From Escherichia coli (GTDB taxonomy: Bacteria > Pseudomonadota > Gammaproteobacteria > Enterobacterales > Enterobacteriaceae): DNA of 64,000 nt. Below, piece by piece: positions 1 through 55,724 of this stretch (the first letter of the stretch is position 1; every line of letters begins with the position of its first letter). A program made the translations under genes and the position numbers. Under the pieces are notes generated by a model. The model was given only the letters and a program-made list of their open reading frames with translations. It had not been told where the DNA came from and did not search any database. The stretch lies in assembly GCF_051903065.1 (NCBI RefSeq), contig NZ_CP178438.1; one strand, 5' to 3'.

Positions 1-104
1 AAAAGGCGAAATACGGCGAATTAAATTTAAGCGGGTTCTTTTATCAGATTATCGTTGCTATTCTCAATTCATCGAAAACAGCCACAAAAACCAGGGGAAT
101 GTGA

Positions 105-710
105 ATGAGTATAAAAAATCTACCTGCCGACTATTTATTGGCTGCACAACAGGGTGATATCGATAAAGTAAAAACCTGCCTTGCGCTGGGTGTCGATATT
201 AATACCTGCGATCGTCAGGGGAAAACGGCAATTACGCTGGCAAGTTTATATCAGCAATATGCTTGCGTTCAGGCATTAATTGATGCCGGAGCGGATATTA
301 ATAAGCAAGATCATACCTGTTTAAATCCTTTTTTAATCAGTTGCCTGAACGGTGATTTAACGCTACTACGAATTATTTTACCGGCTAAACCCGATCTTAA
401 TTGTGTAACCCGTTTCGGCGGTGTCGGCCTGACGCCTGCCTGTGAAAAAGGTCACTTAAGTATTGTGAAAGAGCTTTTGGCGCATACGGATATTAACGTT
501 AACCAGACCAACCATGTAGGCTGGACGCCGCTACTGGAAGCGATTGTGCTTAATGATGGTGGTATTAAACAGCAGGCGATTGTGCAGTTATTGCTGGAAC
601 ACGGTGCCAGCCCGCATCTGACCGATAAATATGGCAAAACGCCACTGGAACTGGCGCGGGAACGGGGCTTTGAAGAGATTGCGCAGTTACTGATTGCCGC
701 AGGTGCATAA
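105..710 (+). CDS. yahD: ankyrin-repeat protein (201 aa)
   Basis: ORF with repeated ankyrin-like units (GKTAITLASL..ALIDAGADIN, GWTPLLEAIV..LLEHGASPHL); position upstream of yahEFG as in E. coli. Confidence 0.8.
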   Translation: MSIKNLPADYLLAAQQGDIDKVKTCLALGVDINTCDRQGKTAITLASLYQQYACVQALIDAGADINKQDHTCLNPFLISCLNGDLTLLRIILPAKPDLNCVTRFGGVGLTPACEKGHLSIVKELLAHTDINVNQTNHVGWTPLLEAIVLNDGGIKQQAIVQLLLEHGASPHLTDKYGKTPLELARERGFEEIAQLLIAAGA

Positions 711-749
711 ACCGGGAGGCTTGCTATCAACACACCAGAAAAACGGTGT

Positions 750-1613
750 GTGTGGGCGCTAACTGCGGATGCGGATTTTCTGGCGCAGCGGGGGCAAGGA
801 CAGGTTGAACAGGTCTTTGCCAGAGCGGTAAATATCGCACTCCCGGCTCGCCAGCAGTTGCTGACGCTGCTTTGTGAAGAGTACGACAATGCGCCAAACA
901 GTTGTCGGTTGGCACTCACTCACTTTGATGGTCTGTTCCGGCATGGTGATAAGGTTCAGTTTGACGATCAAGGCATTACGGTTGGTCAACATCTTCATAT
1001 AGAGATGAGTCGTTGTCGGCGTTGGCTGTCCCCAACCTTGCAAATGACCGCTGTGAATTTTCACCTTATCGCCTGGCAACAGTGGCACGACATTATTCAT
1101 CAGCACTTGGGGGAAAATGAAACCCTGTTTAATTATCGCGGCGATAATCCGTTTTATCAGGCGTTAAATAAAGAATTACATATTAAACGACGGGCAGTTA
1201 TTCAGACAGTAAACGATAAGCAAAATATCGCCTCAGCGGTCACCAGTATGATTGGGTTAGGGATTGGCCTTACGCCATCAGCCGACGATTATTTAACAGG
1301 TCTGGCGCTTATTTTATTTATTCCCGGGCATCCGGCGGAAAAATACAAAGAGGAATTTTATCTCGGTCTGCAACGCGGCAGAAATAATACCACATTATTA
1401 AGTGCTATAACGCTGGAAGCCGCATTACAACAACGTTGCCGGGAAAATATTCATCGTTTTATTCACAACATTATTTATGACATCCCTGGGAACGCAACTC
1501 AGGCAATAGAAAAAATTAAACATATTGGCTCCAGTTCCGGCTGCGACATGCTGTATGGCATGGCCGATGGTTGTGCGCTGAGCCAAACCTACGGAGGGAA
1601 TTATGTCAGTTAA
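750..1613 (+). CDS. yahE: uncharacterised protein (DUF2877-type), 287 aa; exact start uncertain
   Basis: 287-aa ORF; stop overlaps start of next gene (1603..1613), suggesting translational coupling; synteny. Confidence 0.7.
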   Translation: MWALTADADFLAQRGQGQVEQVFARAVNIALPARQQLLTLLCEEYDNAPNSCRLALTHFDGLFRHGDKVQFDDQGITVGQHLHIEMSRCRRWLSPTLQMTAVNFHLIAWQQWHDIIHQHLGENETLFNYRGDNPFYQALNKELHIKRRAVIQTVNDKQNIASAVTSMIGLGIGLTPSADDYLTGLALILFIPGHPAEKYKEEFYLGLQRGRNNTTLLSAITLEAALQQRCRENIHRFIHNIIYDIPGNATQAIEKIKHIGSSSGCDMLYGMADGCALSQTYGGNYVS

Positions 1614-3150
1614 AATAGTCATTAAACCGAATACCTATTTTGATTCTGTCTCGCTGATGTCTATCTCCACGCGTGCAAATAAACTCGACGGCGTCGAGCA
1701 GGCATTTGTGGCGATGGCGACCGAAATGAATAAAGGCGTGCTGAAGAATTTAGGACTGCTGACGCCGGAGCTGGAGCAGGCGAAAAACGGCGACCTGATG
1801 ATTGTCATCAATGGTAAATCGGGTGCGGACAATGAGCAGTTGCTGGCGGAGATTGAAGAACTGTTCAACACCAAAGCGCAAAGCGGCTCGCACGAGGCGC
1901 GTTACGCCACTATTGCCAGCGCCAAAAAGCATATCCCGGAAAGTAACCTGGCGGTGATTTCGGTCAACGGTCTGTTTGCCGCTCGCGAAGCGCGTCAGGC
2001 GCTGCAAAACGATCTCAACGTGATGCTGTTTTCCGATAACGTCTCAGTTGAAGATGAACTGGCGCTCAAGCAACTGGCCCACGAAAAAGGGCTGCTGATG
2101 ATGGGGCCAGACTGCGGCACGGCGATTATCAACGGTGCGGCGCTCTGCTTTGGTAACGCCGTGCGTCGCGGCAACATCGGTATTGTTGGCGCATCCGGCA
2201 CCGGCAGCCAGGAGCTGAGCGTCCGCATTCATGAATTTGGTGGCGGCGTTTCACAACTGATTGGCACCGGCGGGCGCGACCTGAGCGAGAAAATCGGCGG
2301 CCTGATGATGCTCGACGCCATCGGGATGCTGGAAAACGATCCGCAAACTGAAATTATAGCGCTGATTTCAAAACCTCCCGCGCCTGCGGTGGCCCGTAAA
2401 GTGCTGGAACGCGCCCGCGCCTGCCGCAAGCCGGTGGTGGTCTGCTTCCTCGGTCGTGGCGAAACGCCAGTGGATGAGCAGGGGCTACAGTTTGCCCGCG
2501 GCACCAAAGAAGCGGCGCTGAAAGCGGTGATGCTCTCCGGCGTGAAACAGGAAAATCTCGACCTGCATACCCTGAACCAGCCGTTGATTGCGGATGTGCG
2601 TGCGCGTCTGCAACCGCAGCAGAAATACATTCGTGGCCTGTTCTGCGGCGGCACGTTGTGCGACGAAACCATGTTCGCGGTGATGGAAAAACATGGCGAT
2701 GTCTACAGCAACATTCAGCCCGATCCGGAATTCCGCCTGAAAGATATCAACCGCAGCATTAAACACACCTTCCTCGACTTTGGCGATGACGACTTCACCA
2801 ACGGCAAGCCGCACCCGATGATTGACCCCACCAACCGTATCAGCCGCTTGATCGAAGAAGCGCGCGATCCAGAAGTGGCGGTGATCGTGATGGATTTTGT
2901 GCTCGGATTTGGATCGCATGAAGATCCGGTCGGCTCCACCATCGAGGCGATCAAAGAAGCGAAAGCGATCGCCGCTGCCGAAGGACGCGAGTTGATCATT
3001 CTCGCCTATGTGCTGGGTACCGATCTTGATACGCCATCGTTAGAACAACAAAGCCAGATGCTGCTTGATGCCGGAGTGATTCTGGCGAGCAGCAGCACCA
3101 ATACCGGATTGCTGGCGCGTGAATTTATCTGCAAAGGGGAGGAAGCCTGA
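1603..3150 (+). CDS. yahF: FdrA-like / succinyl-CoA-synthetase-alpha-like CoA-binding protein, 515 aa
   Basis: 515-aa ORF with Gly-rich CoA/NAD-binding-like segments (GIVGASGTGSQE); overlaps yahE end and abuts yahG start. Confidence 0.8.
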   Translation: MSVKIVIKPNTYFDSVSLMSISTRANKLDGVEQAFVAMATEMNKGVLKNLGLLTPELEQAKNGDLMIVINGKSGADNEQLLAEIEELFNTKAQSGSHEARYATIASAKKHIPESNLAVISVNGLFAAREARQALQNDLNVMLFSDNVSVEDELALKQLAHEKGLLMMGPDCGTAIINGAALCFGNAVRRGNIGIVGASGTGSQELSVRIHEFGGGVSQLIGTGGRDLSEKIGGLMMLDAIGMLENDPQTEIIALISKPPAPAVARKVLERARACRKPVVVCFLGRGETPVDEQGLQFARGTKEAALKAVMLSGVKQENLDLHTLNQPLIADVRARLQPQQKYIRGLFCGGTLCDETMFAVMEKHGDVYSNIQPDPEFRLKDINRSIKHTFLDFGDDDFTNGKPHPMIDPTNRISRLIEEARDPEVAVIVMDFVLGFGSHEDPVGSTIEAIKEAKAIAAAEGRELIILAYVLGTDLDTPSLEQQSQMLLDAGVILASSSTNTGLLAREFICKGEEA

Positions 3151-4568
3151 TGAGCCAGTCACTGTTTAGCCAACCATTGAACGTTATTAACGTCGGCATC
3201 GCCATGTTTAGCGATGACCTGAAAAAGCAGCATGTAGAAGTGACTCAACTCGACTGGACGCCGCCGGGGCAGGGCAATATGCAGGTGGTGCAGGCGCTGG
3301 ATAACATTGCCGATTCGCCGCTGGCAGACAAAATCGCCGCCGCTAACCAGCAGGCGCTGGAGCGCATTATCCAGTCGCATCCGGTGCTGATTGGTTTTGA
3401 TCAGGCGATTAACGTGGTGCCGGGCATGACGCCGAAAACCATTCTTCACGCCGGGCCGCCGATCACCTGGGAAAAAATGTGCGGCGCGATGAAAGGCGCG
3501 GTCACCGGAGCGCTGGTGTTCGAAGGACTGGCGAAAGATCTCGACGAGGCGGCTGAACTGGCGGCTTCCGGGGAGATCACCTTCTCGCCGTGTCACGAGC
3601 ACGACTGCGTGGGATCGATGGCGGGTGTTACCTCGGCCTCGATGTTTATGCACATCGTAAAAAACAAAACCTACGGCAACATCGCTTATACCAACATGAG
3701 CGAGCAGATGGCGAAGATTTTGCGTATGGGCGCTAACGACCAGAGCGTGATTGACCGCCTGAACTGGATGCGTGATGTGCAGGGACCAATACTGCGCGAC
3801 GCGATGAAAATTATCGGCGAAATCGATCTGCGCTTAATGCTGGCGCAGGCGCTGCATATGGGCGATGAGTGCCATAACCGCAATAACGCCGGGACGACGC
3901 TGCTGATTCAGGCGCTGACGCCGGGGATTATCCAGGCGGGCTATTCCGTCGCGCAACAGCGCGAAGTGTTTGAGTTTGTCGCCAGCAGCGACTACTTCTC
4001 CGGCCCGACGTGGATGGCGATGTGTAAAGCGGCGATGGATGCGGCGCACGGCATCGAATACAGCACCGTGGTCACCACCATGGCGCGTAACGGCGTCGAG
4101 TTCGGCCTGCGGGTCAGCGGATTACCGGGGCAATGGTTTACCGGTCCGGCGCAGCAGGTCATCGGCCCGATGTTTGCCGGTTATAAGCCGGAAGATTCGG
4201 GGCTGGATATCGGCGATAGCGCCATCACAGAAACCTACGGTATTGGCGGGTTTGCTATGGCGACCGCACCCGCTATCGTCGCGCTGGTGGGCGGCACGGT
4301 GGAAGAGGCTATCGATTTCTCCCGTCAGATGCGCGAAATCACCCTTGGCGAAAACCCCAACGTCACCATTCCGCTGCTCGGTTTTATGGGCGTGCCATCG
4401 GCAATCGACATCACCCGCGTGGGTAGCAGCGGCATTCTGCCAGTGATCAACACCGCCATCGCCCATAAAGATGCGGGCGTCGGCATGATTGGCGCGGGCA
4501 TTGTGCATCCACCTTTTGCCTGCTTCGAGAAAGCCATTCTTGGCTGGTGCGAACGTTACGGCGTCTGA
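3150..4568 (+). CDS. yahG: uncharacterised protein (DUF1116-type), 472 aa
   Basis: 472-aa ORF, start codon overlaps yahF stop (3150); synteny. Confidence 0.8.
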   Translation: MSQSLFSQPLNVINVGIAMFSDDLKKQHVEVTQLDWTPPGQGNMQVVQALDNIADSPLADKIAAANQQALERIIQSHPVLIGFDQAINVVPGMTPKTILHAGPPITWEKMCGAMKGAVTGALVFEGLAKDLDEAAELAASGEITFSPCHEHDCVGSMAGVTSASMFMHIVKNKTYGNIAYTNMSEQMAKILRMGANDQSVIDRLNWMRDVQGPILRDAMKIIGEIDLRLMLAQALHMGDECHNRNNAGTTLLIQALTPGIIQAGYSVAQQREVFEFVASSDYFSGPTWMAMCKAAMDAAHGIEYSTVVTTMARNGVEFGLRVSGLPGQWFTGPAQQVIGPMFAGYKPEDSGLDIGDSAITETYGIGGFAMATAPAIVALVGGTVEEAIDFSRQMREITLGENPNVTIPLLGFMGVPSAIDITRVGSSGILPVINTAIAHKDAGVGMIGAGIVHPPFACFEKAILGWCERYGV

Positions 4569-5082: not shown

Positions 5083-6033
5083 ATGAAAGAGCTTGTGGTC
5101 GTTGCCATTGGTGGCAACAGCATTATCAAAGATAACGCCAGCCAGTCGATTGAGCATCAGGCGGAGGCGGTGAAAGCCGTCGCCGATACGGTGCTGGAAA
5201 TGCTGGCTTCCGATTACGACATTGTGCTGACCCACGGTAACGGGCCGCAGGTCGGGCTGGATTTACGCCGTGCGGAGATTGCCCACGAGCGCGAAGGGCT
5301 GCCCTTAACGCCGCTGGCGAACTGTGTGGCGGATACGCAAGGCGGCATTGGCTATCTGATCCAACAGGCGCTGAACAACCGACTGGCGCGTCACGGCGAG
5401 AAAAAAGCCGTCACCGTGGTGACTCAGGTGGAAGTGGATAAAAACGATCCGGGATTTGCCCATCCCACCAAGCCCATCGGCGCATTCTTTAGTGACAGCC
5501 AGCGTGACGAATTACAAAAGGCAAACCCTGACTGGTGTTTTGTTGAAGATGCCGGGCGGGGCTATCGCCGCGTAGTCGCTTCGCCGGAACCGAAACGTAT
5601 TGTCGAAGCACCGGCCATTAAGGCGCTGATCCAACAAGGCTTTGTCGTAATTGGCGCGGGCGGCGGTGGAATTCCTGTGGTGCGTACTGACGCGGGAGAT
5701 TACCAAAGCGTGGACGCGGTTATCGACAAAGATCTCTCTACCGCGCTGCTGGCCCGTGAAATTCACGCCGACATTCTGGTGATCACCACCGGGGTGGAAA
5801 AAGTGTGTATTCATTTTGGCAAACCCGAGCAGCAGGCGCTGGATCGCGTAGATATTGCCACCATGACTCGCTATATGCAGGAAGGGCATTTCCCGCCCGG
5901 CAGCATGTTGCCAAAAATCATCGCCAGCCTGACGTTCCTGGAACAGGGCGGCAAAGAAGTGATTATCACCACGCCGGAATGCCTGCCTGCGGCGCTGCGC
6001 GGTGAAACGGGCACCCATATTATTAAAACGTAA
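5083..6033 (+). CDS. yahI: carbamate kinase-like protein, 316 aa
   Basis: 316-aa ORF with amino-acid-kinase-family features (VVAIGGNSI N-terminus, C-terminal GG-rich segment); synteny. Confidence 0.85.
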   Translation: MKELVVVAIGGNSIIKDNASQSIEHQAEAVKAVADTVLEMLASDYDIVLTHGNGPQVGLDLRRAEIAHEREGLPLTPLANCVADTQGGIGYLIQQALNNRLARHGEKKAVTVVTQVEVDKNDPGFAHPTKPIGAFFSDSQRDELQKANPDWCFVEDAGRGYRRVVASPEPKRIVEAPAIKALIQQGFVVIGAGGGGIPVVRTDAGDYQSVDAVIDKDLSTALLAREIHADILVITTGVEKVCIHFGKPEQQALDRVDIATMTRYMQEGHFPPGSMLPKIIASLTFLEQGGKEVIITTPECLPAALRGETGTHIIKT

Positions 6034-20486: not shown

Positions 20487-21128
20487 ATTGTCGGATGCGT
20501 CGCGTGGCGCATCCGACACCATGCGCAGATGCCTGATGCGACGCTGACGCGTCTTATCATGCCTACAGGCCTGAACCGTAGGTCGGATAAGGCGCTCGCG
20601 CCGCATTCGACACCATGCGCCGATGCCTGATGCGACGCAGGCGCGTCTTATCATACCTACAGGCCTGAACCGTAGGTCGGATAAGGCGCTCGCGCCGCAT
20701 TCGACACCATGCGCCGATGCCTGATGCGACGCAGGCGCGTCTTATCATGCCTACAGGCCTGAACCGTAGGTCGGATAAGGCGCTCGCGCCGCATCCGACA
20801 CCGTGTGCCGATGCCTGATGCGACGCTGGCGCGTCTTATCATGCCTACAGGCCTGAACCGTAGGTCGGATAAGGCGCTCGCGCCGCATCCGACACCGTGC
20901 TCAGTGCCTGATGCGACGCTGATGCGTCTTATCATGCCTACAGGCCTGAACCGTAGGTCGGATAAGGCGCTCGCGCCGCATTCGACACCATGCGCCGATG
21001 CCTGATGCGACGCAGGCGCGTCTTATCATGCCTACAGGCCTGAACCGTAGGTCGGATAAGGCGCTCGCGCCGCATCCGACACCATGCTCAGTTGCCTGAT
21101 ACGACGCTGGCGCGTCTTATCATGCCTA
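20487..21128. repeat. large REP/BIME tandem array (about 6 units, about 640 bp)
   Basis: Repeated palindromic units GATGCCTGATGCGACGC-GGCGCGTCTTATCATGCCTACAGGCCTGAACCGTAGGTCGGATAAGGCGCTCGCGCCGCAT-CGACACC; ORF-track hits inside are artefacts. Confidence 0.9.
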
Positions 21129-21281
21129 CCCACTGTTTTTACACCGATAATTTTTCCCCCACCTTTTTGCACTCATTCATATAAAAAATATATTTCCCCA
21201 CGAAAACGATTGCTTTTTATCTTCAGATGAATAGAATGCGGCGGATTTTTTGGGTTTCAAACAGCAAAAAGGGGGAATTTC

Positions 21282-29387: not shown

Positions 29388-32584
<3,197 letters not shown>

Positions 32585-45007: not shown

Positions 45008-45112
45008 CAGATGCCTGATGCGACGCTATGCGCGTCTTATCATGCCTACGGCCTGCTACGGTTTATGGGCGAAGTGTAGGCCGGATAAGGCGTTCACGCC
45101 GCATCCGGCAGT
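45008..45112. repeat. REP pair
   Basis: GATGCCTGATGCGACGC ... GTCTTATCATGCCTAC ... GTAGGCCGGATAAGGCGTTCACGCCGCATCCGGCA. Confidence 0.85.
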
Positions 45113-45124
45113 CGTGCACTATTA

Positions 45125-45958
45125 TCAACGCATATTCAGTTTATTGGCGTGGTAGGCAATATGCTCGCCAATAAAACTGGAGACAAAATAATAGCTGTGG
45201 TCGTAACCCTCGTGATAACGGATTAACGTCTTGATATTCATCTCCTGGCAGATCTTTTCAAGATTTTGAGTCCGCAGCTGTTCTGCGTAAAAATCATCAC
45301 TCAACCCCTGATCAACCATGATTTCCGCAACGCGTTGACCTTGTGAAATAAGACTCACCGGATCGTAATCCAACCAGGCCTCTTTATTTTCACCAAGATA
45401 TGCGGCAAAGGCTTGCTGTCCCCACGGTACTTGCGATGGGGAGACAATGGGCGAAAACGCCGAGACGCTGACATATTCATCTGGGTTACGTAACGCCAGC
45501 ACCAGCGCGCCCAGCCCGCCCATAGAATGACCTGAGATAGACTTTCTGGTCGTTGCCGGAAAATGTTGCATCACTAAATCCGGCAGCTCGTTGCGGATAT
45601 AGTCATACATTTTGTAATGTTCATTCCACGGCGCTTGCGTCGCGTTCAGGTAAAACCCGGCACCTTGCCCGAGATCGTAACGGTCGGCATCTGCGACATG
45701 ACTGCCTCGCGGACTGGTGTCCGGCGCAACAATAATAATGTTGTGCTCAGCCGCGTAACGCTGCATCCCCGATTTAGTAATGAAATTCTGCTCATTGCAG
45801 GTCAGGCCCGAAAGCCAGTACAGCACCGGTAATTTTTCACCTGCAGCTTTTGGTGGGAGATAGACGGCGACATTCATTTCACATTTCAGTGATGCGGAAT
45901 AATGCCGATACACATTTTGCCAGCCGCCAAAGCTGGCATGTTTTTCAATGAGTTCCAT
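45125..45958 (-). CDS. frmB: S-formylglutathione hydrolase, 277 aa
   Basis: Esterase D-family, GHSMGG nucleophile motif. Confidence 0.9.
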   Translation of the reverse strand: MELIEKHASFGGWQNVYRHYSASLKCEMNVAVYLPPKAAGEKLPVLYWLSGLTCNEQNFITKSGMQRYAAEHNIIIVAPDTSPRGSHVADADRYDLGQGAGFYLNATQAPWNEHYKMYDYIRNELPDLVMQHFPATTRKSISGHSMGGLGALVLALRNPDEYVSVSAFSPIVSPSQVPWGQQAFAAYLGENKEAWLDYDPVSLISQGQRVAEIMVDQGLSDDFYAEQLRTQNLEKICQEMNIKTLIRYHEGYDHSYYFVSSFIGEHIAYHANKLNMR

Positions 45959-46050: not shown

Positions 46051-47190
<1,140 letters not shown>

Positions 47191-47194
47191 TCAG

Positions 47195-47470
47195 CTATTT
47201 AAGATAGGCACGAACCAGTTCAATAGTGTCGTCAACGGATTGGCTGACTTCGCGGCTGTAGCAGTCATTTCGGTCAAACGTTTCCCGGATATGGCTTTCA
47301 AGCACTTCAGCCATCAGCCCGTTAGCCGCGCCCCGAACGGCAGCAATCTGTTGGAGTATGGCACGGCATTCGGCATCACCCTCCAGCGACCGTTCCAGAG
47401 CATCAATCTGCCCCCGAATACGACGAACTCGAGTAAGGACCTTTTTCTTCTCTTCCGGAGTACTGGGCAT
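47195..47470 (-). CDS. frmR: formaldehyde-responsive CsoR/RcnR-family repressor, 91 aa (ORF open to 47491)
   Basis: Small all-helical repressor preceding frmAB; start at [10 protein letters not shown]. Confidence 0.9.
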
Positions 47471-47496
47471 TTCGCACCTCATCATCTGCACGCAAT

Positions 47497-47545
47497 ATAC
47501 TATAGGGGGGTATGCTATATGTCAATGCATACCCCCCTATAGTAT
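47497..47545. promoter_or_regulatory. frmRAB operator: long palindrome with G6/C6 tracts
   Basis: ATACTATAGGGGGGTATGC-tatatgtcaat-GCATACCCCCCTATAGTAT immediately upstream of frmR; G/C-tract flanked by AT-rich inverted repeats is typical of RcnR/CsoR-family operators. Confidence 0.75.
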
Positions 47546-47629
47546 ATAACACTGGAGAATAATTGTTGTCCGAAGCCTAACCAGGTGAACGGTCCCTCAA
47601 GACAGATGGGGACCGTTTATGTGCTATTT

Positions 47630-48676
47630 TTATGCCGCATCCGCTAAAACAAACATCCCGTAAGGATGGATTTCGAGGTAATAGTGCTCACCAATATCGG
47701 GCTGTAAACGGGTGGCGTTTACTTGTAATAAAATCTCCTGTCCATGCCACTCTACGGTCACTTCGTACTGCGGCCCCATGTAGGCGACATGGCGAATAAC
47801 ACAACGCTGACTCTCTTCGCCGTGATTGCTTAAGGTGATGGCTTCCGGGCGAACGCCGACGGTGCCGCTACCTTGCGCCGGGAAATGCGCCGCGCGCGGC
47901 AGGCGATAACCGTAGATATCGACATACTCTTCGCTAAAGTTCGCCGGGAACAGGTTGGCGTCGCCCATAAAACTTGCCATAAATCGGGAGGCTGGCTGAC
48001 GATAGAGATCCTGCGGTGAGCCAATCTGCATGATGTGACCTTTATTCATCACCAACACAGTGTCGGACACCGCGAAAGCTTCACTTTGATCGTGAGTGAC
48101 GTAGAGCGACGTGATATTAAACTGCTTTTGCAGCTCGCGGATCTTATCGCGCATACTGCGGCGCAGGTTGGCATCGAGGTTACTTAACGGCTCATCAAAC
48201 AGCAGCACCTTTGGCTTGAGGATCAACGCGCGGGCCAGTGCCACACGCTGTTGCTGACCACCGGAAATCTGATCGACATAGCGGTCCTCGAAGCCTTCCA
48301 GATCCACCATTGCCAGCGCCTCCTTCACCCGCTGTTTCACTTCGCTACGCGAGACGCCAAGCATCTTCAGCCCGTAGCCAACGTTTTCACCCAGCGACAT
48401 ATGCGGGAACAGAGCGTATGACTGAAACACCATGCAGATATCGCGCTGTTGAATGGAACGATGCGTGACATCTTCGCCATCAATAAAAATTTGCCCTTCG
48501 CTCGGTTTTTCCAGCCCGGCAACCAGACGCAAAATGGTGGTTTTGCCACAGCCGGAAGGACCGAGCAGCGTCACCATTTGCCCTTGTGGAATGGTGAGAT
48601 TGATATTGTCGATAACCGTATTACTGCCGAATCGTTTAGTGACGTTGCGCAGTTCAACAAAATTTTTCTGACTCAT
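47630..48676 (-). CDS. afuC: ABC transporter ATP-binding subunit (AfuC-type), about 348 aa (ORF open to 48688)
   Basis: Walker [10 protein letters not shown], signature [15 protein letters not shown], Walker [12 protein letters not shown]; GGAG Shine-Dalgarno before the ATG at 48676. Confidence 0.8.
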
Positions 48677-48687
48677 AGTGCGCTCCA

Positions 48688-50766
48688 TTACGCCTGGTTT
48701 TTGGCTTTAGAACGGGAGATACGAGCTTCTCCGATCAGCCAGTCAAAGAGGAAAATAATCGCCAGCATCACCACGATCAGAATCGAACCATAGGCGATGG
48801 CTACGCCATATTCGCCGTCTTCAACGCGGTTAAGAATGTAGGCGGTTGCCACGCGGGTGTCCGGCGTGACGAGAAAGACGATGGCGCTGACCGTCGTGAT
48901 GGCCCGCACAAAGCTGTAGATCAGGGCCGAGAGAATGGCCGGACGCAGCAGTGGCAGTAAAATGTGGGTTATGGTTCGCAAGGAACCTGCGCGCAGGCTG
49001 AGTGAGGCTTCATCCAGCGATTTGTCGATCTGCCCCAGGCCTGCAATCCCGGCGCGAATACCCACCGGAACGTTACGCATCACCATCGAGATAATCACAA
49101 TTGCCGCCGTTCCGGTGAGATAAACCGGAGCGCTGTTAAAGGCAAGAATATACGAAACGCCCGCCACCGTACCCGGTACGGCAAAGCACAGCATGGTGGT
49201 GAACTCGATGGTCTTTTTGCCTTTGAATTGTTGACGCACCACCACCCAGGCGATGAGCAGGCCAAAGATAGCGGTAATGGGAGCGGCAATCCCGGCGTAG
49301 AGCAGGGTATCCAGCAGTGAAGGCCACGCGCCGTCGCTCATTCCCTGACCAAATAGCTTGATAAAGTTATCCAGCGTCAGGGTGTAGTCCACGCCCCAGT
49401 TCACCGTGAAGCTGCCGTAGAAAATGCTGCCGTAGAGCAGGGCGTTAAAGGCAATCCATATCGCAAGTATGGCGACCACGCTCCACACCAGGGTGACCGG
49501 TAGCGGCTGGACGTCGCCACGGTAGGATTTGCCGGAAACCGTGACGTAAGAGCGTTTACCAATCCACATATACTGGATGCAGAACACCAGCAGCGAGAAC
49601 AGCAGCAGGAAAGCGCCAAGGGTGCTGGCGGCCTGATAATCCAGCTGCGAGCCGGTAATATAGAAGTAAATTTGCGTCGCCAGTACGTCGAAGTTACCGC
49701 CAAGTACCAGCGGGTTACTGAAATCAGCCAGTGACTGTACCACGACGATTAAAAAGGCATTGGCGAGTGCGGGCTTCAACAACGGCACAAACACGCCGTT
49801 AAAGGTTTGCCAGCGGCTGGCGCGCAGGGTGTAGGAGGCCTCTTCCAGCGAGGGATGAATGGTTTTAATGGCCCCGTCGAGGATCATAAATGCCATTGGC
49901 GTGAATGCCAGAACCTGTGCCAGCCAGATCCCGGTAAAACCGTACAGCCAGTTGGTGTTGGTCAGCCCAAACCACTCCACCATAAATTCCGTAACATAGC
50001 CGGAGCGCCCCATCATGAGCGTCACGCCTAAGCCGACCACAAACGGTGGCGTAACGATGGGCAAAATGGAAAAGATGCGACCAATAATGGCGCTGCGTTT
50101 AGCGATGCGCGTGGTATAAATCGCCAGCACCAGGCCGAAGAAAGTACAGCCTATCCCCACCGCTATCGACAAGACGATAGAGTTGACGATCACCTGAACA
50201 ATATGTGCCTGCGAGAGCACGGTCATAAACGCCAGCGGGGCGAACTCTCCCGCGTCGTTGGTGAACATCGGGATAAAAATGGCGATGCTCGGCCAGACGA
50301 TAAAAATGCCAATCAGCGCCACAATCGCAATCAGTGAGCCGATCACGAAGCGGTCGCCACCCAGCCATTCGAGGCGGGTTAAGGCCAGCGTCATAATCGC
50401 GCCTAGTTCGACAAACAGCACGATGGCGGCGTAGCCTAAACCGCGTCCAACCACGGTGGCGCTGATGACGATAAACGCCATACAGAGCAATGCCCAGCCG
50501 GCATCGAAATAATGACGGCTACGTTGTTCGCGCGTGGCCTCACTAAACGGGCGGACCAGCAACAGGCTCGGGAGTAAATACCACAGCCAGCTGATATTAA
50601 AATGCGACCAGCCATAAGCCTCGAGGATCTCATCACTCGTGGACTCCAGCAGGCCATAATCGAGGCTCCAGCTCGGCAACAGTATAAATGCCAGCCAGCC
50701 CAGCAAAACCCAAAGGAAAATCGCATCCCGCTTTTTCACGGGATGGAGTGCAAGTGTCTGTGACAT
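48688..50766 (-). CDS. afuB: ABC transporter permease with duplicated membrane domain (AfuB-type), about 692 aa (ORF track starts at a TTG at 50817)
   Basis: Very hydrophobic roughly 700-aa protein with two permease halves; stop overlaps afuC start. Confidence 0.75.
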
Positions 50767-50834
50767 AGTAGTTCCGGTATGGTTGGCCGGGGCAGGCGTT
50801 TGTGCTGCACCCGGCAAATACGCCTAATGCGGGT

Positions 50835-51866
50835 TTATTTACCCATCTTCACTTCGCTGACCCATTTATTAATCAATGCCTTACGAACATCCGTGGAACC
50901 ATATTTATCCATGTCGTAGTTGATTAATTTCAGGTCGTCGAGCTTCAGCGAATTTGGCGACGTTTCGGCGGTGGTATTGGTCAGGATCTGATAAGACTTC
51001 CCTTTCTTCCACGCCAGTTCCTGAGCTTCTTTTGATAATACCCAGTCCACAAACAGTTTGGCGTTGTCGAGGTTGCGCGCGCCTTTCAGAATGCTGACGC
51101 CGCCAATTTCGTAGCCCGTACCTTCACACGGGGAAATCAACTCCAGCGGCGCGCCCTGTTCTTTTTCCAGCGAGTAGTCATGCAGGAAGCCAATACCAAT
51201 CGCCGTTTCGCCACGGGCGGCGTTACGTGCCGGGGCTATGCCTGATTTGGTGTACTGAGAGACGTTGGCGTTCAGTTGTTTTAGATAATCAAAGGCCTGA
51301 TCTTCCCCCCACAGCTGCGCAAAAGTAGCCAGGGCGGTGTAGGCAGTACCGGAACTTTGCGGATCGGCAATTTGAATTTCGCCTTTATATTCCGGTTTGG
51401 TGAGATCTTTCCAGCACTTCGGCACCGGCAGGTTTTTCTCTTTCAGACGATCGGTGTTTACGCCAAAACCGAGGATCCCCACATAAACGGCAGAGGACAG
51501 ATTCCCTTTCACTTTTGCCGGATCGCGGAATTTCTCCATGATCTGCTCAAGGGTAGGGGATTTATACGCCTGTAGCAGGCCCATCTCGCCAGCCTGCGAT
51601 TGCGGGTCTAAAGTGCCGCCGTACCAGACGTCAGCCTGGGGGTTTTTCTTTTCAGCATCGACTTTTGCCAGGGTGCTTCCGGAACCGTTGCGGATAAACG
51701 AGGTTTTTACATCATATTTCTCGCCAAACGCTTTGGTTTCGGCCTCACACATTTCATTGGTGGCGCTGCAATAGACCACCAGCCGGCCTTTTGCCTGCGC
51801 GGCACCCGTTAAAGTCGCCAGCGCAACGGCAGAAGCAATCAGAGTAGAGGTAAAGGTCATTTTCAT
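50835..51866 (-). CDS. afuA: periplasmic substrate-binding protein (AfuA/FbpA-type), 343 aa (start at MKMTFTST; ORF track extends upstream into the next gene)
   Basis: Signal peptide MKMTFTSTLIASAVALATLTGAAQA; start ATG overlaps the stop of the upstream MFS gene (ATGA). Confidence 0.75.
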   Translation of the reverse strand: MKMTFTSTLIASAVALATLTGAAQAKGRLVVYCSATNEMCEAETKAFGEKYDVKTSFIRNGSGSTLAKVDAEKKNPQADVWYGGTLDPQSQAGEMGLLQAYKSPTLEQIMEKFRDPAKVKGNLSSAVYVGILGFGVNTDRLKEKNLPVPKCWKDLTKPEYKGEIQIADPQSSGTAYTALATFAQLWGEDQAFDYLKQLNANVSQYTKSGIAPARNAARGETAIGIGFLHDYSLEKEQGAPLELISPCEGTGYEIGGVSILKGARNLDNAKLFVDWVLSKEAQELAWKKGKSYQILTNTTAETSPNSLKLDDLKLINYDMDKYGSTDVRKALINKWVSEVKMGK

Positions 51867-53179
51867 TGTTTTATCCTTCGAGCGTGAGTGGTGGTGATGC
51901 CCGCCATCAGTAACGGCATCAGCAGTAAACCCATAAGTACTGCGGCGACCGAGAGTAAACTGAACATTCCCGGCCAGCCGTAGCGTTCGATGACCAGCGA
52001 CAGCGGCCAGCCTGCCAGCGCCGCGCCAAGGTAAGCGAACAGGCCGAGAAATCCGGTGATTGAACCCGCCGCAGCTTTGTGCCCACACTCCACCGCCGCA
52101 AGTCCAATCAGCATTTGTGGGCCAAAGACGAAAAAGCCCACGGTAAAAAAGCACACTGCCAGCAGAGCGTAGTGATGAACCGGTGCCAGCCACAGTGCGG
52201 CGACTGACACCATCAACCCCAACGTGAACAGCAAAATCATTGGCGCTCGTTGCCCGCTAAACAGCAAATCCGATCCCCATCCGGCAAATAACGCGCCGAG
52301 TAAGCCGCCCACTTCAAACAGCATTACCGTGGCGTTGGCGCTGAGCAGGTTGACACCGTGGCTTTCCGTCAGCCAGATATTGCCCCAGTCGTTAAGCGCA
52401 ATCCGGATCACATAAACCAGTACATAAGAGACGCCCAGTAGCCAGATCAGCGGATTTTGCAGCATGGTGGTGCGCAACATTTGCCACAGCCCCATCGGCG
52501 GACTTTGTTGTTCCTGACGTAACTCCAGCGGATCGTGACGCCAGTGACCAACTGTCGGTAATCCCTCTTCCTGGGGCGTGCCTTTGAGTTGTAGCGTTAA
52601 CCAGATCCCTAATGCCATGCTGATTATCCCCGGTGTCAGCATCGCGGCCTGCCAGCCCCACCAGTGGGCGGCAAAGGCGCTAATCAGCGGAATAATCGCT
52701 CCGCCAATGTTGATCGACATATTCCAGCAGCCCCACCAGAAACCGCGCTCATTGCGTGAGTACCAGTGGGTCAGCAAGCGGGCACACGGTGGCCATCCCC
52801 AGCCCTGAAAAAAACCGTTCAGTGTCCAGACCACAAGCAGAAGCGTAAGTGATTCGCCAAAGGCAAACACCACGTTCAATAACCCGGTGGCGAACAAGCC
52901 GACGCCCATAAAACCGCGTTGTCCGTGGCTGTCATGCCACAGTCCGGCGGTAAATTTCGACAATCCGTAGCTGAGATAAAACAGCGAACCCAGCAGGCCA
53001 ATGTCGCCTTTATCCAGTCCGAGGTCGGTTTGTAGCGCCGGAAGGACGTAATTCACGCTTTTTCGCGTCAGATAAAATGCGGCGTAGCCAATAATCATGC
53101 ACATCAGCAATCGCGGACGTAATGCCCGGTAGCATTGATTAATTTCTCTCGCTGAACGCGCGTGCATGGTTGTCTCCAT
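51863..53179 (-). CDS. UhpC-like MFS sugar-phosphate sensor/transporter, 438 aa
   Basis: 12-TM organophosphate:Pi-antiporter-family protein of UhpC size, downstream of UhpB/UhpA-like genes. Confidence 0.75.
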   Translation of the reverse strand: METTMHARSAREINQCYRALRPRLLMCMIIGYAAFYLTRKSVNYVLPALQTDLGLDKGDIGLLGSLFYLSYGLSKFTAGLWHDSHGQRGFMGVGLFATGLLNVVFAFGESLTLLLVVWTLNGFFQGWGWPPCARLLTHWYSRNERGFWWGCWNMSINIGGAIIPLISAFAAHWWGWQAAMLTPGIISMALGIWLTLQLKGTPQEEGLPTVGHWRHDPLELRQEQQSPPMGLWQMLRTTMLQNPLIWLLGVSYVLVYVIRIALNDWGNIWLTESHGVNLLSANATVMLFEVGGLLGALFAGWGSDLLFSGQRAPMILLFTLGLMVSVAALWLAPVHHYALLAVCFFTVGFFVFGPQMLIGLAAVECGHKAAAGSITGFLGLFAYLGAALAGWPLSLVIERYGWPGMFSLLSVAAVLMGLLLMPLLMAGITTTHARRIKQ

Positions 53180-53251
53180 GTTGCTGACTATATGAAAATG
53201 AAAGTGAAAGGGGATGAGAGAAAATCCGGGATACCTAAGACTTTTTCCTGG

Positions 53252-54793
53252 TTATCCGGCGATTTGTTGCAAAAATGTGGGCAAGTTAACAATTACCCGC
53301 GTGCCGTGCTGTTTTTCGAGCGTTAAGTCGCCGCCCAGGGCGCTGACGCGCTCACGCATCCCCTGAATGCCAAATCCGGCCATTTTCCCGCTGGCGATCC
53401 CCACACCGTTGTCGCTGACCTCCAGATGCAATACCTCTCCCTGCTGGCGCAGGATAATCGTCACTTCGCTGGCTTCGGCGTGTTTACAGACGTTATTGAG
53501 CAACTCCTGCAATAACCGATACAAGGTAAAGCGCACCGTTTCGTTTTCTGGTGTGGAGTTCAGTTGATAGGCAAACTGGCAATGAATGCCGCGTTCACCA
53601 AAGGCAAATTCATTAATCAGATGCAACAACGCTTCGCGAAATGTCAGTTCATCAAGCGCGGGAGGCCGCAACTGGCGCAGCAATTGGCGGGTGGAGAGAT
53701 GAATGCGGCGGGCGAGCTCATTGATTTGGCTGGCTGCGGATTGAATTTGCGCCGGATCACGCGCCCGCTTCACCAGTTGCGACTGGATCTGAATGGCGGT
53801 GATGTTCTGACCGATTTCGTCGTGCAGCTCTCGCGCCAGGTTTTTTCGCGTGTCCTCCTCGGTGTGGATCAACTTTTCCGCCAATGCCCGCCGCGCTGCC
53901 AGCTCGGCCTCCAGCCGTTGTCGGTAATGGTGCAGGTTTAGCGCCAGATGTTGCTGGCGACTGATGGCAATGCCCAGGCCAATTCCCAGCAAGGCCTGGG
54001 TCGCGAGGAAAATCTCCAGCTCCACCAGGTTACTAAAGCCCACGCCAATCTGGCGGGCGATGGTGATCATCATGCTGCCCAAAAGCCCGGAGAGTACGCC
54101 ACCTTGCCAGCCAAATTTCCACGCCATCACCACATTGGGCAAAAAGACCACGATCAACAGCAGACGCTCAATTTCAGGTGACAGCACCATCTGAGTGCCG
54201 ATACCAATGATAAAAAACAGGCTACACCAGATGATTAAAGAGGTACGCAAGGGGGGATTATGCGTATCGAGTCCCAGGAGCTGGTAGCGATGCTGCTGGC
54301 GCAGAAACTCAAAGATAAGATAGACAAACGGCGTCAGTAATACGCCGCCGGTAAATGAGGTCAAACCCGGCAGCATTATTGGGCCTGACATAAAAGGGGA
54401 GAGCAGGGCGGTATTCAACAATGAAGCTGCCGTGACAGTGGCTAACAGCAACGTCAGACGCTGCCAGTAAAGTGGAAAACGGTGCCAGAAGTTTTGCGCA
54501 AGGAGGACAGGAAACAGGCTAATAACCGGCGTTGCCAGCATGAGATAACCGTTCAATAGCTGCTCACTATGGAGCCAGAACATCATCAGCAAAGGGGGGA
54601 GTACCAACGCAGGCCAGTAGCGGCGAGAGAGCAAAATAACAAGGGCGAGATAAACTCCCTGCGGGAGAAACAACACCGCCTGTTGACCGTTATTGGTCAG
54701 ATAAAAGCTGAGCGTCCACAGCATCAGCCAGCCGGTTCCCCAGGCCAACACAATAAACAGCGAAATCACCCAATGACGAAGATTGCGCGACAT
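53252..54793 (-). CDS. UhpB-like sensor histidine kinase, 513 aa
   Basis: N-terminal multi-TM sensor region, HisKA_3 H-box ELHDEIGQNITAI, ATPase region (VSDNGVGI). Confidence 0.8.
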   Translation of the reverse strand: MSRNLRHWVISLFIVLAWGTGWLMLWTLSFYLTNNGQQAVLFLPQGVYLALVILLSRRYWPALVLPPLLMMFWLHSEQLLNGYLMLATPVISLFPVLLAQNFWHRFPLYWQRLTLLLATVTAASLLNTALLSPFMSGPIMLPGLTSFTGGVLLTPFVYLIFEFLRQQHRYQLLGLDTHNPPLRTSLIIWCSLFFIIGIGTQMVLSPEIERLLLIVVFLPNVVMAWKFGWQGGVLSGLLGSMMITIARQIGVGFSNLVELEIFLATQALLGIGLGIAISRQQHLALNLHHYRQRLEAELAARRALAEKLIHTEEDTRKNLARELHDEIGQNITAIQIQSQLVKRARDPAQIQSAASQINELARRIHLSTRQLLRQLRPPALDELTFREALLHLINEFAFGERGIHCQFAYQLNSTPENETVRFTLYRLLQELLNNVCKHAEASEVTIILRQQGEVLHLEVSDNGVGIASGKMAGFGIQGMRERVSALGGDLTLEKQHGTRVIVNLPTFLQQIAG

Positions 54794-55422
54794 TAATGCC
54801 CCGCCAGCAGATGGTGGTCGAGCGCAAAATGTACCAGTTCAATGGTGCTATGGCAGTTCAGTTTTCCCAGCACATTGGCGCGATGCACATGTACCGTTTT
54901 ATGACTGAGTTCGAGTTTAAAGGCGATCTCTTTAACGCTGTCTCCTTTGACCAGTAAATCAAACACTTCACGTTCTCGTGGGGTGAGAATTTCCAGCGCC
55001 TGGGCGGGTTGCCCGCCGCCGCGTAAAGCCCGAATCGCATCGGCACAGAGATAATGCCCGCCCAGCCCGACCGAGCGCACCGCCTGTACTAACTCTTCCG
55101 GCCCACAGCGTTTGGTTAAATACCCGCTGGCACCGGCATCCAGCGCGCTTTGCACAAAGGTTGGCGCGTCATAAATGCTAAGAATAATGGCGCGAAATTG
55201 CGGTTTTTGTGCACGCAGGCGCTTAAGCAAACTGAGGCCGTTTTCGTCCGGCATGGCAATATCAATGACGGCAACATTGACGTCATCACGGATTAATGCC
55301 GACCATGCCTGCGCGGCACTACTGTACTGACCAATGACCTCCAGATCGTCTTCCAGAGAGAGTAATTGTGCGAAGCCAGAGCGCACCACCACATGGTCAT
55401 CCACCAGCACTACCCGAATCAT
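54793..55422 (-). CDS. UhpA-like NarL/FixJ-family response regulator, 209 aa
   Basis: Receiver domain (VVLVDDH ... VIDIAMPD) plus C-terminal LuxR-type HTH; stop overlaps kinase start. Confidence 0.8.
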   Translation of the reverse strand: MIRVVLVDDHVVVRSGFAQLLSLEDDLEVIGQYSSAAQAWSALIRDDVNVAVIDIAMPDENGLSLLKRLRAQKPQFRAIILSIYDAPTFVQSALDAGASGYLTKRCGPEELVQAVRSVGLGGHYLCADAIRALRGGGQPAQALEILTPREREVFDLLVKGDSVKEIAFKLELSHKTVHVHRANVLGKLNCHSTIELVHFALDHHLLAGH

Positions 55423-55724
55423 ACTTTTCTTCTCTTATTATCTAATTCTCCTATCATGCATCACGGCGCGGCGCTGGCAATCAACCAGCGACAGATATGG
55501 AATGGATGTAACAAAATGGCAATAATTTGCCGGAGCGCGCACATCTTATCTGGCTTGTGAACCGGCGGGATACGTTCGCCAAAACCGCAAAATGCGCAAA
55601 CTCGCTAACCATTGCCGATTTTTTTCTAAAAACGCTTTGTTCTTAACAAGACCTTTTAATTCCTTTATCAAACTGACCCGCAACGAAATACTGCTCCCAT
55701 AACAAGACAGGGGAGCAGACAATC

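Follow-up and report, generated by a model that had tools for sequence, protein, structure and literature searches.

The closest described system is the frm promoter (Pfrm) of Escherichia coli K-12, in which Denby et al. (2016, Sci Rep 6:38879, PMC5146963) described a large inverted repeat of tandem ATAC-N9-GTAT sites, i.e., tandem type I FrmR sites, centered at -29 from a start site that these authors termed “predicted.” FrmR binds Pfrm with a Kd of ~220 nM and dissociates from it on exposure to formaldehyde, and in vitro transcription from Pfrm is repressed by FrmR and relieved by formaldehyde (PMC5146963). Later work with the same sites, published in 2024, demonstrated that the constitutive promoter J23100 becomes subject to FrmR-dependent repression once it carries the two ATAC-N9-GTAT sites, and that a truncated native Pfrm with both sites, but without the DNA upstream of them, loses repression by FrmR (PMC11127321).

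Two other operators of this family are also informative. The Salmonella frmRA operator (Osman et al. 2015, 2016; PMC4528141, PMC5016687) contains a C6 tract with flanks that form a T/A-rich inverted repeat, and binds two FrmR tetramers even though it is, by its published description, a single C6 site on a 33-bp probe; this binding is weakened by formaldehyde, and is abolished by mutation of one T/A-rich flank (PMC5016687). The RcnR operators of E. coli rcnR-rcnA (TACT-G6-N-AGTA) are tandem type I sites, two per promoter, in which AT-rich inverted half-sites surround a G/C tract, and are bound by a tetrameric DUF156 repressor that is released by its effector (PMC5146963).

A Pfrm-type operator in the 64-kb window

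Our repeat search of the window, i.e., the whole 64-kb stretch of E. coli DNA that was analyzed, identified a 53-bp perfect palindrome at 47495-47547, centered on position 47521 and belonging to neither strand. The palindrome comprises two 21-nt arms that are 100% complementary (arm 1, 47495-47515, ATATACTATAGGGGGGTATGC; arm 2, 47527-47547, GCATACCCCCCTATAGTATAT) and that are separated by an 11-nt spacer, with a G6 tract located at 47505-47510 and a C6 tract at 47532-47537. With spacers of up to 40 nt allowed, these arms form the longest perfect inverted repeat of the window, the next longest being 13 nt, and 30 dinucleotide-preserving shuffles of the window gave maximum arms of just 9-12 nt; analytically, ~6e-7 arms of 21 nt or longer would be expected by chance. 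The first-pass annotation had described a 19-bp arm with a perfect inverted copy 11 bp away, and its perfection and spacing hold, whereas its length does not, since the 19 nt are the inner part of a 21-nt arm, with each arm extending 2 nt further outward. This annotation had also placed the palindrome upstream of frmR, which is correct: the gene is encoded on the minus strand, its ATG is at 47470, and the palindrome ends 24 bp before it. The distance of about 85 bp that the annotation gave to the afuC stop proved close, with 82 nt between the palindrome end at 47547 and the fbpC/afuC stop codon (47630-47632). The second-longest perfect palindrome, with 13-nt arms at 32473-32507 (minus strand), corresponds to the lac promoter-operator region (…TGTGTGAAATTGTGAGCGGATAACAATTTCACACAGG…ATGACTATGATTACGGATTCACT), and the window therefore includes lacO1 and the start of lacZ. 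Searched separately against Rfam with a permissive cutoff, the segment 47100-47750 gave only hairpin-shaped chance matches to eukaryotic miRNA families, at 26.8 bits against gathering thresholds of 73-100.

The pattern ATAC-N9-GTAT matches the 64 kb only twice, and these two matches are the two arms, with one 17-bp site in each. On the frmR coding strand (minus), the distal, promoter-upstream type I FrmR site occupies 47529-47545, reads ATACTATAGGGGGGTAT, and starts at -75 from the ATG, and the proximal type I site occupies 47497-47513, reads ATACCCCCCTATAGTAT, and starts at -43. Each arm has the composition ATAC-C6TAT-AGTAT, or its complement, and the two sites are in inverted orientation with 32 bp from start to start; the frmR coding strand over the palindrome region reads ...TTATATACTATAGGGGGGTATGCATTGACATATAGCATACCCCCCTATAGTATATTGCGTGCAGATGATGAGGTGCGAAATG. 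Each arm is thus a complete small dyad in its own right, and the “extended palindrome” is in fact two operators in inverted orientation. This arrangement differs from that of the RcnR operators, where the sites are 15 bp long with centers 19 bp apart, as the FrmR sites are 17 bp long, with an additional TATA that separates the G/C tract from one half-site, and are placed in inverted orientation on either side of the -35, ~32 bp apart.

A consensus scan of 47150-47950 found one sigma-70-type promoter on the frmR strand, TTGACA-17-TAGTAT, which matches the consensus at 10 of 12 positions. Its -35 hexamer (TTGACA, 47520-47525, minus strand) is located within the spacer of the palindrome, and its -10 hexamer (TAGTAT, 47497-47502, minus strand) lies 17 nt away within the proximal arm. 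The distal site ends 3 bp before the -35, and the proximal site extends over the promoter spacer to include the -10. The earlier suggestion that the palindrome lies over the probable frmRAB promoter is thus in agreement with our scan, although the overlap of operator and core promoter elements is a prediction from consensus matching, as is the start. This predicted transcription start falls at 47489-47492 (minus strand), 6-8 nt past the -10, and would be 47492 if the center of the palindrome is at -29, as Denby et al. state (PMC5146963). The leader from this start to frmR would be short and would contain a Shine-Dalgarno-like ribosome-binding site, GAGGTG, which is read from the sequence at 47475-47480 (minus strand), 4 nt before the frmR ATG. 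A promoter facing away from frmR was also considered and rejected: the mirror -10 has no -35 (ATATGT is found at the 17-nt position), and the promoter scan of the plus strand was empty.

The operon behind this promoter encodes the cognate DUF156 repressor. frmR (47195-47470, minus strand) encodes a 91-aa protein that scores 189 bits against the NCBIfam equivalog NF008464 (cutoff, 133) and matches E. coli FrmR (PDB 5lbm) with E=4e-55; the sensing residues Pro2, Cys35, and His60 are all present in its translation. Salmonella FrmR is far more distant (PDB 5lcy, E=7e-25). Downstream, also on the minus strand, are frmA, encoding S-(hydroxymethyl)glutathione dehydrogenase (46051-47160, TIGR02818), and frmB/fghA, encoding S-formylglutathione hydrolase (45125-45958, TIGR02821), and the gene upstream of and co-directional with frmR is fbpC/afuC (47630-48688, minus strand, NF008513). 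All four proteins, FrmR, FrmA, FrmB, and FbpC, exceed the curated equivalog cutoffs of NCBIfam.

The locus is the same as K-12 Pfrm, and carries the same large inverted repeat of tandem ATAC-N9-GTAT sites. Over ~100 positions the two sequences differ at 2, 47514 and 47491, with both 17-bp sites and the -35 and -10 hexamers being identical. At 47514 the window has a G where K-12 has a T, which changes the arms from 19 nt in K-12 to 21 nt in the window and the spacer from 15 to 11 nt; the second difference, 47491, is near the predicted start. In addition, the upstream neighbor is fbpC in the window and yaiO in K-12. As in the Salmonella frmRA operator, the sites have a C6 tract with T/A-rich inverted repeat flanks. 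The first-pass annotation had likened the geometry to operators bound by CsoR/RcnR-family repressors such as FrmR, and this is borne out by the near-identity to K-12 Pfrm, by the identity of the downstream gene as frmR, and by the published binding. In both its sequence and its conservation upstream of frmR, the element is a type I CsoR/RcnR-family (DUF156) operator of the FrmR subtype. We are therefore highly confident that the palindrome is the FrmR operator-promoter of the frmRAB formaldehyde-detoxification operon (Pfrm), an operator already published for K-12, and hence a feature that was already known. The element itself was known beforehand; what we add is the comparative picture, the allele frequencies, and a singleton spacer inversion.

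Conservation of the FrmR site across species

We scanned 80 FrmR loci, using one genome per species and ranging from Escherichia to the Alpha- and Betaproteobacteria. The exact ATAC-N9-GTAT site has a density of 10.07 per kb within 100 nt upstream of frmR, compared with 0.015 per kb in the remainder of the same 80 loci, a ~670-fold enrichment just upstream of frmR. The exact site was found in 65 of the 80 loci, and 75 of the 80 contain it with at most one mismatch. The inverted two-site form is present mainly in the Enterobacterales and Aeromonas, and is imperfect in Deefgea; two-site loci have a spacing of 32-35 bp, and every two-site Enterobacterales locus has TTGAC in its spacer. The arms are perfectly complementary in Escherichia and in a plasmid-borne type whose interior is CTCCAC, with up to 4 mismatches elsewhere, and the two sites of Erwinia are arranged as direct repeats. 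Most of the distant taxa contain a single site. For example, the frmR promoters of Brucella/Ochrobactrum, Pseudorhodoferax, Lysobacter, and others resemble the window in having a 17-bp ATACT-C-rich-AGTAT site directly before frmR, but differ from it in having just one such site and no long palindrome; in the Brucella/Ochrobactrum group, this site and a -35-like TTGACA hexamer share one base, the last of the hexamer. The G6/C6 tract is variable outside Escherichia, with interiors such as CTCCAC and CCCAC, and since it is not kept there, perfect extended symmetry is dispensable for the function of the family as a whole. The overall pattern fits two protein-binding sites rather than an obligatory hairpin.

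Among loci L008, L010-L013, and L020, one near-identical frmR upstream region is shared by Citrobacter, Klebsiella, and Maribrevibacterium, and another by Edwardsiella (on a plasmid, e.g., Edwardsiella anguillarum plasmid NZ_CP006665.1), Enterobacter, and Morganella. Such near-identity in unrelated genera indicates horizontally mobile frmR modules that carry their own operator variant, with CTCCAC in place of C6.

Alleles of the operator within E. coli

The region was found in 5409-5415 of 5426 complete E. coli genomes. Its 73-nt core is the same as that of the window in 2867 of 5409 genomes and shows 1-3 differences in a further 2535; arms of 21 nt are thus the commoner state, and the 19-nt arms of K-12 represent a minority variant. 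In a comparison over 301 nt, E. coli strain 88-3493 showed 100% identity to the window, and O157:H7 strains showed 99.0-99.3%.

One genome departs from this pattern. In E. coli FJ_Ec_21 (NZ_CP143627.1; L083:151-223, equivalent to 47485-47557 of the window), the 15 nt that separate the 19-nt arms are an exact inversion of those in the K-12 allele and read GCATTGACATATAGA on the plus strand, which moves the -35 TTGACA to the opposite strand. As a -10-like TAGTAT is present in both arms, and only the 11-15-nt spacer with the -35 is asymmetric, inversion of the spacer would reverse the promoter: in FJ_Ec_21, frmRAB would be left without its -35, and a mirror TTGACA-17-TAGTAT promoter would face away from frmR. 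Flipped-spacer queries on both allele backgrounds gave a full-length match only in FJ_Ec_21, i.e., in 1 of ~5,400 genomes, and the flip is a singleton and not a polymorphism. Either a genuine template-switch inversion or an error of assembly may account for it. We consider it very unlikely that the palindrome, besides serving as the operator, acts as a rare invertible switch of the promoter for formaldehyde detoxification, driven by recombination or template switching.

A variable cassette adjoins the promoter

The segment between the frmR promoter and tauA occurs in at least four states among E. coli (47573-55586 in the window, and L086:3174-3239, L001:6070-10617, and L085 in the loci compared). 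In the window, it is a variable cassette of ~8.0 kb (47573-55586, with no strand assigned) that contains fbpC, an ABC permease, a substrate-binding protein, a uhpC-like gene, a sensor kinase, and a response regulator, and that starts 16-25 bp past the distal arm. In K-12, this position is occupied by yaiO through yaiS; in ST131, frmR is directly beside a divergent tauA, with 66 nt containing a single REP element instead of the cassette; and in strain EC29, there is an ISEc20 insertion at the cassette position. fbpC adjoins frmR in 450 genomes, and yaiO does so in 4279, as in K-12.

The ST131 intergenic region is 100% identical to the window over 47400-47562, and the match resumes from 55587, while a multi-strain alignment shows a common but more divergent stretch that continues up to 47572; the cassette is present in some strains and absent from others, with its junctions at 47563-47572 and 55586/55587. 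The first-pass annotation had proposed that the promoter is also the boundary of an island, and homology with strains that do not contain the fbpC cassette indeed stops at 47562-47572. We did not find the classical hallmarks of a mobile island, with the GC content of the cassette (0.52-0.55) being like that of its flanks, no integrase or transposase among its six annotated genes, and no flanking direct repeats seen at the two junctions when these were read by eye. Rather than a classical island, this is a variable replacement cassette that sits between frmR and tauA.

Several smaller features of this region were also observed. Just past the junction, K-12 and the window share a weak similarity (GTGAA...) that may be due to chance. 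On the cassette side of the junction, 13 nt past the fbpC stop codon, a 9-bp perfect inverted repeat with a 12-nt loop is present at 47588-47617 (AACGGTCCC / GGGACCGTT); since no T-run follows it, this is not a canonical intrinsic terminator. REP-type repeats elsewhere in the window, at 20531-21129 and 45013-45049, are 86-92% identical over 36-37 nt to the REP element located between frmR and tauA in ST131, with six copies clustered at ~20.5-21.1 kb.

Between the palindrome and the cassette is a 25-bp stretch (47548-47572, minus strand; CGGAyAAawwTTATTCTCCAGTGTT on the coding strand) that is common to all Escherichia contexts, whatever the adjoining cassette. Its outer 10 nt (47563-47572) are homologous, yet divergent between cassette types. 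The loss of repression from the truncated Pfrm that retained both sites implies that two sites may not suffice in the native context, and this 25-bp stretch may matter, e.g., for DNA wrapping or as an UP-like element.

Alternative explanations for the palindrome

A perfect palindrome located between two co-directional genes could act mainly as RNA or DNA structure, i.e., as a terminator or processing hairpin in read-through from fbpC, or as a cruciform, rather than as a protein operator. The predicted energetics are in keeping with such a role, as the perfect 21-bp stem has a DNA folding energy of -21.5 kcal/mol (z = -7.4), the palindrome hairpin dominates the predicted fold of the 193-nt RNA from the fbpC stop to frmR, and our terminator scan found no convincing intrinsic terminator in the gap between these genes. 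The same scan found no T-run after the palindrome stem, however, and its sole terminator-like match (47668-47654) is located inside fbpC; the predicted start is downstream of the palindrome, meaning that the frmR mRNA would not contain the hairpin. The palindrome is also kept equally in ST131, where the upstream neighbor is the divergent tauA and there is consequently no co-directional read-through, and most of the distant frmR loci contain one site without a long hairpin, with the Erwinia sites being direct repeats. Taken together, we regard a mainly structural role as exceedingly improbable. We also judge it very unlikely that the palindrome is a target for recombination or insertion, or the end of a mobile element, that lies behind the variable cassette. 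In favor of such a role, a mere 16-25 bp separate the distal arm from the junction of the 8-kb cassette, E. coli genomes show four or more states here (the REP-bearing empty site, yaiO through yaiS, the fbpC cassette, and ISEc20), and the inverted spacer in one genome shows arms able to recombine or template-switch. Against this, the palindrome is on the conserved side of the junction in every state, including the empty site; neither the far end of the cassette nor the rest of the window contains a second copy; the palindrome accompanies frmR in distant taxa and on plasmids where this cassette is absent; and the cassette itself has an unexceptional GC content (0.52-0.55) with 0 of 6 annotated genes encoding an integrase or transposase.

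The similarity of the FrmR sites to those of RcnR (TACT-G6-N-AGTA; PMC5146963) raises the question of whether another regulator, i.e., RcnR or a different CsoR-family protein, uses this operator, or whether it serves a divergent promoter, given that the distal arm, by symmetry, contains a mirror -10-like TAGTAT on the plus strand. There is no plus-strand gene beside the palindrome, though, and the 17-bp FrmR site with its extra TATA is distinct from the 15-bp RcnR site. Moreover, FrmR binds Pfrm ~16-fold tighter than an unrelated promoter fragment (Kd of ~220 versus ~3600 nM; PMC5146963), and a loss of repression on deletion of frmR, already reported, also argues against control by another regulator. 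This explanation is extremely unlikely, and the FrmR operator-promoter of frmRAB is the reading that we adopt.

A model for control of frmRAB and its implications

By identity with the K-12 sites, the sites in the window would be bound directly, and in a formaldehyde-reversible manner, by FrmR. FrmR tetramers at both sites would occlude RNA polymerase, which would repress frmR, frmA, and frmB, and the repressor would thereby autoregulate its own expression. Formaldehyde forms Pro2-Cys35 methylene bridges in FrmR that remodel its DNA-binding surface, and the remodeled FrmR would leave the DNA, allowing the operon to be expressed. The exact start, the stoichiometry on the two-site DNA of E. coli, and whether one tetramer bridges both sites, on which Denby et al. 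speculated, are the parts of this model that we infer.

Through this element, E. coli regulates its main pathway of formaldehyde detoxification, and widely used formaldehyde biosensors have it as their core part. Mutations in frmR that de-repress frmRAB lead to formaldehyde and methenamine resistance in urinary isolates (PMC13029678), and mutations in the operator would be a second, so far unreported, route to formaldehyde/methenamine resistance.
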